From the sequence record NC_049953.1: 47,224 bases of DNA; one strand, given 5' to 3'. Of the stretch, positions 21,891-33,263 are shown in pieces. Numbering within the stretch: position 1 is the first letter of the stretch; each line of letters starts with the position of its first letter. The translations under genes and the position numbers were made by a program. The DNA comes from Escherichia phage ev099. Under the pieces are notes generated by a model. That model did no database searches and was not told the DNA's origin. It worked only from the letters and a program-made list of their open reading frames with translations.

Positions 21891-23123
21891 ATGATAGGTG
21901 GGGAGTATGGTGCATTATGGCGTAATGATGGCGCTAAAACTTACCTGCTGCTTACCAATCAAGGTGATGTTTATGGTGGCTGGAATACATTAAGACCGTT
22001 TGCTATTGATAACGCAACCGGCGAACTGATTATTGGAACCAAACTGTCCGCAAGTCTGAACGGTAATGCATTAACAGCAACAAAGCTGCAAACGCCAAGA
22101 CTGGTTTCTGGTGTTGAGTTTGATGGTTCCAAAGATATTACTTTAACCGCCGCGCATGTGGCTGCTTTTGCCAGAAGGGCAACGGATACATATGCCGATG
22201 CGGATGGGGGCGTTCCATGGAATGCCGAATCAGGCGCTTACAATGTCACCCGCTCTGGCGACAGCTATATTCTGGTTAACTTCTATACCGGAGTCGGAAG
22301 TTGCCGGACCCTGCAGATGAAGGCACATTACAGAAATGGAGGTCTGTTCTACCGTTCCTCAAGAGATGGCTATGGTTTTGAGGAAGACTGGGCAGAAGTT
22401 TATACCTCGAAAAATCTTCCACCAGAAAGCTACCCAGTCGGCGCACCAATCCCGTGGCCATCAGATACCGTTCCGCCTGGTTATGCCCTGATGCAGGGGC
22501 AGACTTTTGACAAATCTGCATACCCGAAACTTGCAGCCGCTTATCCGTCAGGCGTGATCCCTGATATGCGTGGCTGGACGATTAAGGGCAAACCTGCCAG
22601 TGGTCGCGCCGTATTGTCTCAGGAACAGGACGGCATTAAATCGCACACCCACAGCGCCAGCGCATCCAGTACGGATTTGGGGACGAAAACCACATCGTCG
22701 TTTGATTACGGAACCAAATCCACGAATAACACCGGGGCGCATACCCATAGTATTAGCGGGACCGCAAATAGTGCCGGTGCGCACCAACACAAGAGTTCCG
22801 GTGCATTTGGTGGCACGAACACGAGCATTTTCCCTAATGGTTATACCGCGATTTCAAATCCAAGCGCGGGGATTATGAGCACAACAAGCGGTAGTGGCCA
22901 GACTCGTAATGCAGGAAAGACATCATCAGATGGTGCTCATACCCACTCGCTGTCCGGCACTGCTGCAAGCGCAGGCGCACATGCACATACTGTCGGTATT
23001 GGTGCTCATACGCACTCCGTTGCGATTGGCTCACATGGACACACCATCACCGTTAACGCTGCGGGTAACGCGGAAAACACCGTCAAAAACATCGCATTTA
23101 ACTATATTGTGAGGCTTGCATAA
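21891..23123 (+). CDS. stf: side tail fiber, distal part: collar and His-box region ending with the conserved ...[11 protein letters not shown] tip
   Basis: 410 aa, same frame as upstream stf ORF; contains GAPIPWPSD collar motif and GAHTHS/GAHAHT His boxes. Confidence 0.8.
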
Positions 23124-23704
23124 TGGCATTCAGAATGAGTGAACAACCACGGACCATAAAAATTTATAATCTGCTGGCCGGAACTAATGAATTTATTGGT
23201 GAAGGTGACGCATATATTCCGCCTCATACAGGTCTGCCAGCAAACAGTACCGATATTGCACCGCCAGATATTCCGGCTGGCTTTGTGGCTGTTTTCAACA
23301 GTGATGAGGCATCGTGGCATCTCGTTGAAGACCATCGGGGTAAAACGGTTTATGACGTAGCGTCAGGGGACGCGTTATTTATTTCTGAACTCGGTCCGTT
23401 ACCGGAAAATGTTACCTGGTTATCGCCGGAAGGGGAGTTTCAGAAGTGGAACGGCACAGCCTGGGTGAAGGATACGGAAGCAGAAAAACTGTTCCGGATC
23501 CGGGAGGCGGAAGAAACAAAAAACAGCCTGATGCAGGTAGCCAGTGAGCATATTGCGCCACTTCAGGATGCTGTAGATCTGGAAATCGCAACGGAGGAAG
23601 AAATCTCGTTGCTGGAAGCATGGAAGAAGTATCGGGTGTTGCTGAACCGTGTTAATACAACAACTGCACCGGATATTGAATGGCCAGTAGCACCTATAGG
23701 GTAA
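23123..23704 (+). CDS. tfa: tail fiber assembly protein
   Basis: 193 aa [24 protein letters not shown]...; TAATG overlap with stf stop as in lambda. Confidence 0.93.
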
Positions 23705-24563
23705 ATTCGTAATGATTACCTAAATACGTTATTCTTTTGCTCAAAAAGTGATTTTGCTATAGGTAGAGAGTATGTTCTTGGATTAAGAATAAAAAATCGC
23801 CATGAAAGAGCTTCATGGCGAGTACATAAACGTACAAAATATGATGAAAGTAGAGTGGCGTAAGCCACTATATTAAGATATGACAATAGCGAAGAAAAGT
23901 AAATAACATTTTATGGGCGTTTAATTGTTAATTATAAAAACTAGAGTGCCCGATATTGTTTATCTTGCTTTAAAATAATGTACTCAAACCAAATTTTTGA
24001 GCTAAAAGCTCAAATAATATAAATGCAATGATAATGTTTAATAAGACAATTAGCTTGCTTTGTATTTTCATTTCGGAATACTGTTAAGTAACTTTGATGA
24101 CCCTAACAATAGATCGGAATTTTCTTAGAGTCAATGGACACTGTTTTTGCTTGCAAAGCAAATGTTTTGGTGGTTATAAGTTGTCTTAATATAGTCACGC
24201 ATGCAACTTGTTCCATGCGGAGATTAAAGATTGGAATATAACGCGAAGATGGAATTAAATTACATTTGCAATAATCAATTTATTATTGCTCAATAATTAC
24301 CGATATTATTATTGTAAATTAATCATTAGAGTGCAAAAAGAAATGTAACGGCAAAATAAGAGGACGATAGCTGAGAAAAAAGCGTGCTTTCCCAATCTGG
24401 GGCAAATCACGTCTGAATGACACCTGAAAACAGGTGGTAGCCTCAAGAAGGCTTGGAATATTCTTCTTTAATGTTATGTAATTCATTGATTTTTCGTGTA
24501 CGATTTTAAGACATTTATTCCAAGAAAAATTTTTAACTCTTTGATTTTTCGACTCTGTATCAT

Positions 24564-24625
24564 CGGTCTCGAAAACCGGAGTAGGGGCAACTCTACCGGG
24601 GGTTCAAATCCCCCTCTCTCCGCCA
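24564..24625 (+). tRNA. partial tRNA-Ser (serU-like, anticodon CGA) 3' portion only, about 62 nt, ending CCA
   Basis: GGTCTCGAAAACCGGAGTAGGGGCAACTCTACCGGGGGTTCAAATCCCCCTCTCTCCGCCA matches the 3' two-thirds of E. coli tRNA-Ser(CGA); no acceptor/D-arm upstream. Confidence 0.8.
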
Positions 24626-25200
24626 CTTTATCAATGACTTATCTCCCGACTTCCCGCCTTGCTTTTCCTAAACAGAACAATCGTAGAATATTCTTGAAGG
24701 GTTAGATCGTCACTGTTTTCTGTTCGATACTGTGACATTCAGCACTTGATTCGCTATGGATCTAACAGGAAGGTTTTGAGCGAAAATTTGCAGTTATTCA
24801 GTCGTTTTCTTATCGGTCACCATTATTCTTTTAGACATTGATCCTACAAAGCTGCCGCAAAGTTGGTGGTGGGAACTGAAGTTGCGTAGAGAAGGGGTCA
24901 ATACCCGGAGGCAAACATGGGCTGGCAAAAGTGTAGCGGTATTAGGCGCAGCTATTTAGCCTAGTTATGTTTTATGAAAACTTAATATCATATAAGTGTC
25001 TTACTTATTGGCTGTAAATAAGTTTTTCCTAAGGAATTGTTTCTTGAGTATCATTTGTAACTGTAACGGAATTTATAATCCTTTGCTTTATTGTTACGGT
25101 ATTTTTTATCACACCCTATTTTTTATATGGTTTTTTATACTGAAGTTTGGCAAAGTGAACTTTATATGCATATACTTCATCCTGGTTTCAGTTAAGTTGG

Positions 25201-25953
25201 GTGGATGATATGGCAACTACATGTTCAGTTATATTGATTTTGGAGTCCTTTGATGTTTATTTCGGAAAAGAGAGTGTGTTTCTGGAGAGAGGTTCATCTG
25301 TACTTGTCGACTCTAGCTCTAGAGATTTTTTCCTGACATATCCTGAAAGAGTGATAGTGGCGGATTTTGGCGCTGAGTTTATTAGTCGCTATTTGAAAGC
25401 TAATAACTTAAGGGATATTTATGATTGTAGGGAATATCCATCTTATTTAAAAATAAACTTTGCTGACTTCAGTTTAATTAAAGGATTAATTAGTTGGGCT
25501 AATCACTGTGCTGAATACATAGAAATTTTTGATGAGTCTATTGCTTTTACATGTCTCTCTGCATTTTCTTCTGAAAAACAATTTGGAGTATTTCTGTTTG
25601 AATGTTTGAAAAGCACAGAGGCTAAAGTTAAAACGATTATTCATACGGATTTATCTGCACCATGGCGTCTTAAGGATATATCATCAAGATTATATCTCAG
25701 CGAAAGTTTACTAAAGAGGAAATTGAAAGACGAGGGGGTATCATTCAGTAAGATCATACTTGATGAGAGGATGCAAATGGCTGAATATTTACTCAGCACT
25801 CGTTGTTATCCTATTAGTAAAGTAGCTAAGGTCTGTGGTTATGCCAGTGTCTCATACTTTACTTATGTATTTAGACGTTATTTTGGTGTTTCTCCAAGTC
25901 AATACTCTCAGAGGAGTTCAGAAAGTAAAATTCTTACTCACCAGGGAATCTGA
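25201..25953 (+). CDS. AraC/XylS-family transcriptional regulator (GadX/AppY/EnvY-like), AT-rich
   Basis: 250 aa; C-terminal dual HTH signature ...LKDISSRLYLSESLLKRKLKDEGVSFSKII...VAKVCGYASVSYFTYVFRRYFGVSPSQY; true start may be ATG at 25210. Confidence 0.85.
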   Translation: MDDMATTCSVILILESFDVYFGKESVFLERGSSVLVDSSSRDFFLTYPERVIVADFGAEFISRYLKANNLRDIYDCREYPSYLKINFADFSLIKGLISWANHCAEYIEIFDESIAFTCLSAFSSEKQFGVFLFECLKSTEAKVKTIIHTDLSAPWRLKDISSRLYLSESLLKRKLKDEGVSFSKIILDERMQMAEYLLSTRCYPISKVAKVCGYASVSYFTYVFRRYFGVSPSQYSQRSSESKILTHQGI

Positions 25954-26425
25954 TCATTGTTCTTGCCCCCTTATTTCCAGACAGGGGGTGTATCTTAAGT
26001 TAACGTTACCCGCTGACGTCGATATTCTCGCGGAGAGCGATAACCCAACGCACTGTGCGGATGGTTTTCATTGTAATGTTCGATCGCCACTGCAAGATTA
26101 TGCAATGCCGTTCTTACATTCGGTTTCGGCATGAACGCGATGTAGTCTTCCTTCATCGTTTTCACGAACCTTTCTGCCATTCCATTACTCTGAGGACTGC
26201 TGATTGCCGTTGTGCAGGGCTCCAGATTCAACTCTCTGGCGAACTGCCATGTTTCATGCGCTCTATACGCTGAACCGTTATCTGTCAGCCACTGGATGGA
26301 CTGTTCCGGTACTTTATCGCCAAAGCGTTTTTCTATCGCTCCTAACATGACATCCTGCACTGTCGCTTTATCGTAACCTCCCGTGCTTGCGGCCCAGTCT
26401 ATGGCTTCACGATCGCAACAGTCCA
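25951..26425 (-). mobile_element. IS2-like insertion sequence remnant (3' part of orfB transposase plus terminal inverted repeat)
   Basis: Minus-strand ORF ...[27 protein letters not shown]...[14 protein letters not shown] matches IS2 InsD C-terminus; end sequence ...tctggaaataagggggcaagaacaatgatca resembles IS2 IRR. Confidence 0.8.
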
Positions 26426-26445
26426 GGGCGAACGTAACACGCAGT

Positions 26446-26665
26446 TTTGAATCGCCACGGGTTTAACAGACACCTCAGAGTCATTTAAGATGGCTTAAAG
26501 AGAGGTGCCCATGAGCGGTAAGCGTTATCCCGAAGAGTTTAAAACTGAAGCAGTCAAACAGGTTGTTGATCGCGGTTATTCTGTTGCCAGCGTTGCAACA
26601 CGTCTCGATATCACCACCCACAGCCTTTATGCCTGGATAAAGAAGTACGGTCCGGATTACTCCAC
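26446..26665 (+). mobile_element. IS3-family insertion sequence remnant (left end plus N-terminal orfA fragment)
   Basis: MSGKRYPEEFKTEAVKQVVDRGYSVASVATRLDITTHSLYAWIKKYGP is a typical IS3-family OrfA HTH N-terminus; reading frame degenerates after about 50 codons. Confidence 0.7.
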
Positions 26666-26819
26666 TTTTTCATCAAGCCAATCCGCCCACCACTGCATCA
26701 TTTCTCTGCGCTTATCGAGATACTGAGCGTGGTTGTAAATTCAGCTAACCCAGTGTGTTGACAAAAAATTAGCGCAAGAAGACAAAAATCACCTTGCGCT
26801 AATGCTCTGTCTCAGGTCA

Positions 26820-27036
26820 CTAATACTATCTAAGTAGTTGATTCATAGTGACTGGATATGTTGTGTTTTGTAGCATCATGTAGTCTATTTTTGAGACTAA
26901 AGATATTGTAACACATTGATATTACTGGTTTTTAATGTTTCACGTTCAGCTTTTTTATACTAAGTTGGCATTATAAAAAAGCATTGCTTATCAATTTGTT
27001 GCAACGAACAGGTCACTATCAGTCAAAATAAAATCA
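26820..27036. other. attP: attP phage attachment site (core GCTTTTTTATACTAA at 26949-26963, with P and P' arms)
   Basis: Exact lambda core and conserved P' arm; P arm partly divergent. Confidence 0.9.
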
Positions 27037-28107
27037 TTATTTGATTTCAATTTTGTCCCACTCCCTGCCTCTGTCATCACGATACTGTGATGCCATGGTG
27101 TCCGACTTATGCCCGAGAAGATGTTGAGCAAACTTATCGCTTATCTGCTTCTCATAGAGTCTTGCAGACAAACTGCGCAACTCGTGAAAGGTAGGCGGAT
27201 CCCCTTCGAAGGAAAGACCTGATGCTTTTCGTGCGCGCATAAAATACCTTGATACTGTGCCGGATGAAAGCGGTTCACGACGAGTAGATGCAATTATGGT
27301 TTCTCCGCCAAGAATCTTTTTGCATTTATCAAGTGTTTCCTTCATTGATATCCCGAGAGCATCAACATGCAATGTTGTTGGGATGGCAATTTTTACGCCT
27401 GTTTTGCTTTGCTCGACATAAAGATATCCATCTACGATATCAGACCACTTCATTTCGCATAAATCACCAACTCGCTGCCCGGTAACAACAGCCAGTTCCA
27501 TTGCAAGTCTAAGCCAACATGGTGATGATTCTGCTGCTTGATAAATTTTCAGGTATTCGTCAGCCGTAAGTCTTGATCTCCTTACCTCTGATTTTGCAGC
27601 GCGAGTGGCTGCGACCGGGTTTGTTGTTATATGGCCTTCAGCTATAGCCTCTCGGAATGCATCGCTCAGTGTTGATCTGATTAACTTGGCTGATGCCGCC
27701 TTGCCCTCGTCTATGTATCCATTGAGCATTGCCGCAATTTCTTTTGTGGTGATGTCTTCAAGTGGAGCATCAGGCAGACCCCTCCTTATTGCTTTAATTT
27801 TGCTCATGTAATTTATGAGTGTCTTCTGCTTGATTCCTCTGCTGGCCAGGATTTTTTCGTAGCGATCAAGCCATGAATGTAACGTAACGGAATTATCACT
27901 GTTGATTCTCGCTGTCAGAGGCTTGTGTTTGTGTCCTGAAAATAACTCAATGTTGGCCTGTATAGCTTCAGTGATTGCGATTCGCCTGTCTCGGCCTAAT
28001 CCAAACTCTTTACCCGTCCTTGGGTCCCTGTAGCAGTAATATCCATTGTTTCTTATATAAAGGTTAGGGGGTAAATCCCGGCGCTCATGACTTCGCCTTC
28101 TTCCCAT
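27037..28107 (-). CDS. int: integrase (tyrosine recombinase)
   Basis: 356 aa MGRRRSHERRDLPPNLYIRNNGYYCYRDPRTGKEFGLG...; lambda Int. Confidence 0.97.
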   Translation of the reverse strand: MGRRRSHERRDLPPNLYIRNNGYYCYRDPRTGKEFGLGRDRRIAITEAIQANIELFSGHKHKPLTARINSDNSVTLHSWLDRYEKILASRGIKQKTLINYMSKIKAIRRGLPDAPLEDITTKEIAAMLNGYIDEGKAASAKLIRSTLSDAFREAIAEGHITTNPVAATRAAKSEVRRSRLTADEYLKIYQAAESSPCWLRLAMELAVVTGQRVGDLCEMKWSDIVDGYLYVEQSKTGVKIAIPTTLHVDALGISMKETLDKCKKILGGETIIASTRREPLSSGTVSRYFMRARKASGLSFEGDPPTFHELRSLSARLYEKQISDKFAQHLLGHKSDTMASQYRDDRGREWDKIEIK

Positions 28108-33058: not shown

Positions 33059-33191
33059 TTTTGGGTACTCCTGGCTGATTAAGTATGTCGATAAGGCGTT
33101 TCCATCCGTCACGTAATTTACGGGTGATTCGTTCAAGTAAAGATTCGGAAGGGCAGCCAGCAACAGGCCACCCTGCAATGGCATATTGCAT
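33051..33191 (-). CDS. cIII: CIII FtsH/HflB inhibitor (46 codons here)
   Basis: [46 protein letters not shown] then TAA. Confidence 0.85.
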   Translation of the reverse strand: MQYAIAGWPVAGCPSESLLERITRKLRDGWKRLIDILNQPGVPKNG

Positions 33192-33263
33192 GGTGTGCTC
33201 CTTATTTATACATAACGAAAAACGCCTCGAGTGAAGCGTTATTGGTATGCGGTAAAGCCGCAC

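Follow-up and report, generated by a model that had tools for sequence, protein, structure and literature searches.

Prophages and islands that insert into tRNA genes can bear an orphan 3′ tRNA repeat at their distal end, a pattern reportedly described by Williams in 2002 (Nucleic Acids Res 30:866), including an anticodon-loop sublocation. A segment of this kind is found in Escherichia phage ev099 (sequence record NC_049953.1), whose 47,224 nucleotides, analysed here as a whole, are referred to as the window: an identity block with the tRNA-Ser(CGA) gene serU that runs from the anticodon stem to CCA. In the native lysogens of strains ECL27977 and M11957, and in one further native lysogen, the tRNA is rebuilt at the int-proximal end of the prophage and the orphan lies at the distal end, as in the repeats of that description, whereas the window holds the junction inside a phage that integrates at gal-bio, with no partner repeat. 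On the other hand, the bio-type transducing phages of lambda show the order late genes, P arm, core, B′, host DNA and illegitimate novel joint, lack the integration genes of the original phage, and carry host DNA in the b/att region of a lambdoid genome, all of which can be recognized in the window. In this case, however, the target is serU instead of attB-lambda, the host DNA amounts to only 278 non-coding bp, the genome has been re-fitted with lambda int-attP, the product is fixed and widespread in phages and prophages, and excision is a step that we infer.

Three other systems are close enough to be compared. The record of Escherichia phage SerU-LTIIb (KU052038) has a related P arm (91% over ~185 bp) that ends in an annotated tRNA-Ser piece, which shows that lambdoid phages do use serU; that record is a prophage in place at serU, whereas the window contains the displaced junction only. 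The lambdoid moron or cargo loci that follow the tail-fibre genes resemble the block in the window in its location between tfa and attP and in its content of an AraC-type regulator and insertion sequence (IS) debris, and the O157:H7 copy of the block is likewise found in a degraded prophage at ~313 kb; here, in contrast, the tRNA piece and its host flank are passengers of the cargo block and not a gene. Lastly, phage Sp10 was integrated into K-12 with the attR of the Rac prophage used as attB (PMC2669165), so a P-O-B′ site can be a functional target, although integrase and site differ from those considered here. The kind of event is therefore a textbook one, as known from orphan tRNA repeats and from capture of the specialised-transduction type, and serU is a known lambdoid site, whereas no description of this junction, or of its link to a PatE-like gene, was found in the literature. 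Altogether, the 62-nt piece is very probably the core of a fossil attR (P-O-B′), which would have been captured with 278 bp of host DNA by a specialised-transduction-like event, spread by lambdoid mosaicism and left as a now inert scar.

Table 1. Features of the window around the serU-derived piece, from the tail fibre assembly gene to the integrase.
Feature	Position	Strand	Basis
tfa, tail fibre assembly gene	23123-23704	+	ORF list; annotated tail fiber assembly protein in the loci of three relatives (including 214-4 and ECL27977)
AT-rich non-coding stretch 3′ of tfa, phage right end	23705-24368	+	GC ~0.30
P arm (type 1), phage-side att arm of serU-integrating lambdoid phage	24369-24563	+	adjoins the orphan piece at native serU attR
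Orphan serU piece: att core and rest of displaced host tRNA 3′ part	24564-24625	+	62/62 identity
Host DNA, serU-yodB spacer, B′ side, 278 bp	24626-24903	+	present in 5405/5426 E. coli genomes
Right-end 56 bp of an IS630-family element, including the terminal inverted repeat, forward orientation	24904-24959	+	sequence match
AraC-family regulator, YdeO/GadX type (cargo gene)	25210-25953	+	Pfam HTH_18 and HTH_AraC, each 1.2e-15
IS3-family (IS2-like) transposase, C-terminal remnant	25995-26360	-	rve_3 8.3e-17; IS2 TnpB positions 172-289 of 301
IS3-family orfA transposase, N-terminal remnant	26505-26726	+	HTH_Tnp_1 1.3e-14; annotated partial transposase
Lambda attP core, working attachment site of the phage	26949-26963	+	exact match to GCTTTTTTATACTAA, unique in the window
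Lambda-type integrase	27037-28107	-	Phage_integrase 2.6e-40 and lambda Arm-DNA-bind_1 7.1e-33

The lambda-type integrase and the exact lambda attP core (Table 1), together with a lambda cIII thermoregulator element (33146-33204, minus strand; 88.5 bits) that confirms a lambda-type early left operon, identify the window as the genome of a lambda-family phage. Its integrase is the only one in the window, and the attP core is preceded by ~190 bp of lambda P arm. Among phage records, mEp332 is the nearest, with ~97-98% identity across most of the genome, and a prophage of E. coli strain 214-4 is 99.8% identical over positions 23000-26967 of the window. This prophage adjoins ybhB-bioA, the classical lambda site, and its terminus beside these genes coincides with the position of the lambda attP core. 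An 88-bp stretch (26653-26740), flanked by the IS3 debris and the lambda P arm, is ~95% identical to DNA annotated elsewhere under intS, the CPS-53 integrase, and may be the scar of another integrase module.

The piece itself is identical at all 62 positions, with zero mismatches or gaps, to nt 29-90 of E. coli tRNA-Ser(CGA) serU, the reference being the 90-nt gene of a K-12-like genome. It starts at the second base of the anticodon stem and covers the last 4 bases of its 5′ strand, the anticodon loop CTCGAAA (anticodon CGA), the long variable arm and the T arm, and ends with the 3′ acceptor strand, the discriminator and CCA. The identity stops at position 24563, a T where nt 28 of serU is C, and no sequence resembling serU nt 1-28, GGAGAGA or the D arm was found upstream of the piece. 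A match of this quality lies well outside what chance would give: searches with an 18-mer and a 24-mer taken from it, with up to 3 mismatches tolerated, each gave one occurrence in the window against 0.02 and 0.00 expected, and the same pattern searches found no second copy of the att core in the window. Instead of the complete cloverleaf of a functional tRNA-Ser CGA gene, only nt 29-90 are present. ARAGORN called 0 tRNA or tmRNA genes in the whole window, while as a control it called tRNA-Ser(cga) at native serU loci and none at the equivalent orphan pieces of other genomes, and Rfam at gathering thresholds gave no tRNA match in the window. A search of 24350-24800 by E-value gave only partial matches below threshold, to a plastid 3′UTR family (on the opposite strand), to sX4 and to the T-arm of tmRNA, which reflect tRNA-like segments and were not accepted as membership of any Rfam family. 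Two ORFs that overlap the piece (24496-24705 on the plus strand, 24483-24626 on the minus strand) are short and were treated as spurious, and a Pfam scan of the first of them gave no match. The original prediction had read these ~62 nt as the 3′ two-thirds of serU, from the anticodon stem to CCA and lacking a 5′ half, had expected no complete tRNA and had left room for a match too short or degenerate on proper alignment; the gap-free identity and the behaviour of ARAGORN agree with that reading and dispel its reservation. Its placing of the piece next to foreign cargo and 2.3 kb left of the real lambda attP was equally accurate, since the core begins 2,324 bp to the right and the neighbouring DNA holds the AraC regulator and the IS debris.

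To the left of the piece, collinearity with the right end of a serU-resident lambdoid prophage begins at 23588, inside the 3′ end of tfa, and the stretch 23705-24282 is also common to other lambdoid prophages. The P arm (referred to as type 1) is a discrete conserved block of 195 bp, which, as estimated from the spread of the matches, occurs in well over 1,000 genomes, and strains ECL27977 and M11957 have it at their native serU attR junctions. The serU prophage of ECL27977 is complete (~42 kb), with intact serU at the opposite boundary and int and xis adjoining it. Its order is mtfA, intact serU, a small cargo in a slot between attL and int, the tyrosine integrase (336 aa), a DUF4224 Xis-like gene and the early genes, followed by the late genes, J, tail fibre, tfa, type-1 arm, orphan serU piece and yodB. 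Positions 23588-24903 of the window are collinear at 98.3% with the tfa-to-yodB end of this prophage (locus L003, 5884-7199). In M11957, type-1 arm, piece and native flank match the window at 99.1% over 535 bp (locus L013, 1244-1778), and the flank agrees with the window at all six sites where the latter departs from K-12, which makes M11957 the closest to the donor state among the sequences found. The six differences from K-12 were also considered as shared mutations that arose after capture, an idea that was rejected because this haplotype is also present at the native locus of M11957.

Some other observations concern this flank. In M11957, the interval from the flank to zinT has no annotated yodB, which would point to a local deletion. 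An Rfam match to IS009 (23466-23664, plus strand; 229 bits, above the gathering score) lies wholly inside the tfa ORF and is probably a conserved segment of tfa rather than an independent small RNA. Well over 1,000 genomes, by the same estimate, appear to hold only this 195-bp block. Prophages at the Rac/ttcA site, beside uspF, carry the type-1 arm followed by 12-18 nt from the start of the piece (window 24369-24581; locus L004, 6001-6215), and their identity with the window breaks off within the anticodon loop (..TCGGTCTCGAAA/CCCGTAGCC..), at a point that coincides with the expected crossover region. A relationship between the integrases of both kinds of phage was considered and discarded, as IntR and the Int of the serU phage share 20% identity (E 0.03), and the Rac-site attL examined is without a serU-type core. 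Since IntR is unrelated and that attL lacks the core, the arm at the Rac site is a second, independent fossil of the type-1 arm.

To the right of the piece, the 278 bp match complete E. coli genomes at ~96-98.6%, directly after an annotated tRNA-Ser, and map to a single fixed locus in ~99.6% of the genomes, which argues against a stretch native to a phage and acquired from it by E. coli. Native chromosomes read ...GGGTTCAATA/ATTGAG... at the point where this similarity ends, whereas the window reads ...GGGGTCAATA/CCCGGAGG... across the joint 24903/24904 (against ...CAATA/ATTGAG in the native DNA). The host DNA is fused there to the interior of the IS630-family element and not to an IS terminus, and the joint is read as an illegitimate, non-homologous one and not as the end of a transposition. 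A plain insertion of IS630 at the TA that ends the host DNA was rejected on the orientation of the remnant: it represents the right end of the IS, read forward, so that its interior faces the host DNA. The window thus shows what is expected of specialised transduction, that is, host DNA contiguous with an att junction and ending in a novel non-homologous joint.

A further question to be addressed is which of the att sites is present in the window. The rebuilt serU at the attL of ECL27977 has G48/C59, whereas the orphan at its attR, a K-12-like empty site and the window all have A48/T59, an assignment of phage and host variants that rests on one lysogen. As the attL and attR variants differ, the phage brings its own, slightly different 3′ tRNA part, and the crossover is confined to the interval from nt 29 to nt 47, within the anticodon loop or close beside it; moreover, two unrelated phage arms stop at an identical point of the tRNA. 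Because the piece is followed by 278 bp of chromosome and has A48/T59, it is the displaced copy of the host and not the att copy of an element. This host-type copy, identical to serU and flanked by the distal end of a prophage on one side and by the chromosome on the other, is consequently a P-O-B′ (attR) junction and not attP. It is true that elements targeting tRNA genes carry a 3′ tRNA segment of such extent in their attP, and that vB_EcoM-606R7 and vB_EcoS-689R5 have the 3′ part of serU beside an integrase, so the piece could be thought of as an element-borne copy, either part of an attP or of an island inserted in the phage. Nevertheless, the chromosome on the 3′ side, the host variant of the variable arm and the absence from the window of both the P′ arm and the cognate integrase of the native prophage make that origin very improbable. 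Only 62 nt of the window match the attL locus of ECL27977, the integrase of the window is 21.6% identical to that of the serU-resident prophage, and no other tblastn match to the serU-phage integrase with E below 0.3 was found in the window. The intact attP predicted from the arm of the window with the core and P′ arm of the ECL27977 attL was also sought in 50,697 phage records, from which it is absent as an intact site; partial matches came from two module-bearing phages, one partial serU prophage record and phages with other arms.

In the Nissle-type genomes (e.g. Nissle 1917 derivatives), similarity to the window starts only at 24612, with the last ~14 nt of serU followed by the flank, which indicates a different class of serU-linked islands with a short 3′-end repeat. 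The piece in the window, unlike that class, starts at the anticodon stem, and its source is best taken as a phage with an anticodon-loop-type site and not an island that duplicates the last ~14 nt of serU. The proposal of a footprint left by a serU-targeting island or phage, captured by recombination, is consequently upheld for a phage, whose prophages in serU have the left flank of the piece at their right end, and not for an island. Likewise, the idea that the piece is the kind of tRNA segment present in att sites was right as to the att junction and wrong as to whose copy it is, namely the displaced copy of the host at attR and not that of the element itself. The comparison of both flanks with E. 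coli genomes, which had been put forward as a check, yields a serU prophage end on the left and, on the right, the serU-adjacent chromosome, which is present in 5405/5426 genomes. With regard to activity, the core occurs once in the window, with neither a partner attL nor a cognate integrase to form an active att pair. As partner site, cognate integrase and 5′ tRNA half are all missing, the piece would be an inert scar riding with the regulator gene; it most likely has no current function, its inertness being an assumption made from the sequence.

The gene with which the scar travels encodes an AraC-family protein that matches NCBIfam YdeO at 3.8e-43, below the cut-off of that model, and is identical at 244/247 aa (98.8%) to the copy in the degraded O157:H7 prophage (WP_000246059.1). 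By position and family, it is probably an orthologue of PatE, an acid-resistance activator and repressor of the LEE. PatE (z0321, in OI-8), PsrA and PsrB are prophage-encoded AraC-like regulators of O157:H7 (PMC10877973), and the window implies that a viable lambda-family phage carries a near-identical copy of an EHEC regulator. Downstream, the C-terminal IS3-family remnant is annotated as incomplete in the 214-4 locus. The only strong promoter-like site (25147-25176) follows the IS630 remnant and directly precedes the AraC gene; none was found on the plus strand just upstream of the piece, and no terminator-like site within 24564-24960. These data bear on whether the piece could be a functional RNA or signal, for instance by acting as a decoy or tRNA half or by serving the AraC gene as terminator or regulator. 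It retains an entire T arm and variable arm, which could fold, and in a spread sample of the matches the block was always linked to the AraC gene, a linkage that follows from the single origin of the joint. The piece lacks, however, the 5′ strand of the acceptor, the D arm and any nearby promoter-like or terminator-like site, and one relative in which IS1 has replaced 24454-25003 retains the AraC gene, so a role of this type is hardly credible, even less so than an element-borne copy.

The sequences show the first steps towards the fossil attR, which begin with a lambdoid phage that was integrated in serU and whose tyrosine integrase crosses over in or near the anticodon loop. Integration rebuilds the tRNA at attL from phage-borne sequence, and the original 3′ part of the host gene is orphaned at the opposite prophage end, where it separates the tail-fibre genes from the chromosome. 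In an ancestor of the module, this end came off the chromosome along with 278 bp of adjoining host DNA, which is fused through the illegitimate joint to the interior of the IS630-family element upstream of the AraC-type gene. Aberrant excision of the lambda-bio kind, with breaks 278 bp outside attR and in cargo at the left end of the prophage, is the most likely way for this to occur. Finally, homologous exchange among lambdoid phages would have brought the block into the b region of one that uses lambda int/attP.

The same fossil could also have been formed by another route, in which recombination, either IS-mediated or homologous, between chromosome segments or prophages of one cell relocated attR with its flank. 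The novel joint does involve an IS, the block is littered with IS3-family debris, IS1 and IS4 have acted in relatives (IS1 in the replacement mentioned above, IS4 by interrupting the arm of another relative), and the lambdoid prophages of E. coli commonly rearrange with one another (PMC2669165). But host DNA that joins the interior of an IS does not form a joint of transposition origin, and the order P-O-B′, host DNA and novel joint is the signature of bio-type aberrant excision, which is why excision is favoured. The recombination route would then be a possible alternative of clearly lower probability, and the two would be inseparable by sequence alone.

With respect to its distribution, the joint between host flank, IS630 and the region upstream of the AraC gene (24626-25200) occurs in 536 complete E. 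coli genomes (~10%), and the block is also present in the phage isolates mEp332 and PhiR70_1. The recurrence of the same joint in all of them means that it is not an artefact. In a spread sample of the matches, the AraC-upstream part was never seen without the host flank, and an intact serU followed by the IS630-AraC arrangement was found in 0/5426 genomes, none of which displays an intermediate of the capture. The lambdoid tfa arm of type 1 precedes the block in the window, in 214-4 and in mEp332, and the joint is preceded by this arm in ~101 of the 536 genomes. In O157:H7, and in another prophage that adjoins paoD, a second arm (type 2, with pinE / GIY-YIG) is joined to the block at the same tRNA position, and judging from the matches sampled it would precede the block in most of the remaining joint-bearing genomes. 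Both arms occur at native serU attR junctions as well, the type-2 arm beside yodB.

One right-hand block behind two unrelated arms requires at least one event at or within the site after the capture. Integrase action at the core, RecA-dependent crossing-over in the 340 bp shared with the native locus, or independent captures from an unsampled chromosome could each be that event. The first of them raises the intriguing possibility of a live landing pad, in which the core and B′ arm would be a substrate for the serU-specific integrases of other phages, with docking or arm swapping at the core. A block with a single illegitimate joint that follows two unrelated arms at the same tRNA position, arms that both exist at native serU attR junctions, is what this possibility would predict, and the integration of Sp10 at the Rac attR offers a precedent. 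Yet the same boundary would result, with no integrase involved, from RecA-dependent crossing-over at any point of the 340 bp in common with a native attR, and likewise from independent captures out of an unsampled chromosome already bearing IS630-AraC. In addition, a tandem arrangement accompanied by a matching attL-like copy was not observed, most genomes holding just two copies of the piece, the native one and that of the module. A live landing pad is consequently rather unlikely, although less so than an element-borne copy or a functional RNA. If it were true, the phage would carry a copy of an attB-like bacterial target and spread it to new chromosomal places, which would explain the uniquely joined block behind two arms in >500 E. 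coli genomes, including O157:H7.

In any case, the preferred reading, a fossil attR captured by aberrant excision, leaves the current understanding of phage biology unchanged. What the locus offers is a clean natural record of a specialised-transduction-like capture, in which junction, host DNA and joint are readable at single-base resolution and whose product has spread to ~10% of complete E. coli genomes and to viable phages of the lambda family. On the other hand, an orphan 3′ piece of a tRNA can be a pitfall for programs that rely on tRNA-derived repeats to define the limits of prophages; they would cut the prophage 2.3 kb short and exclude an AraC regulator of the acid-resistance type. 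The unique joint between host DNA and IS630 can be used as a marker for the movement of the PatE-like regulator between phages of different integration specificity, and the 340 bp of near-identity to the chromosome give these phages a RecA-dependent route into the serU region.

A last observation concerns the rebuilt serU at the attL of ECL27977 (locus L006, 14037-14126). Its two substitutions, A48G and T59C, are compensatory in the stem of the variable arm, and ARAGORN still calls tRNA-Ser(cga) there, so that lysogens express a slightly different serU.
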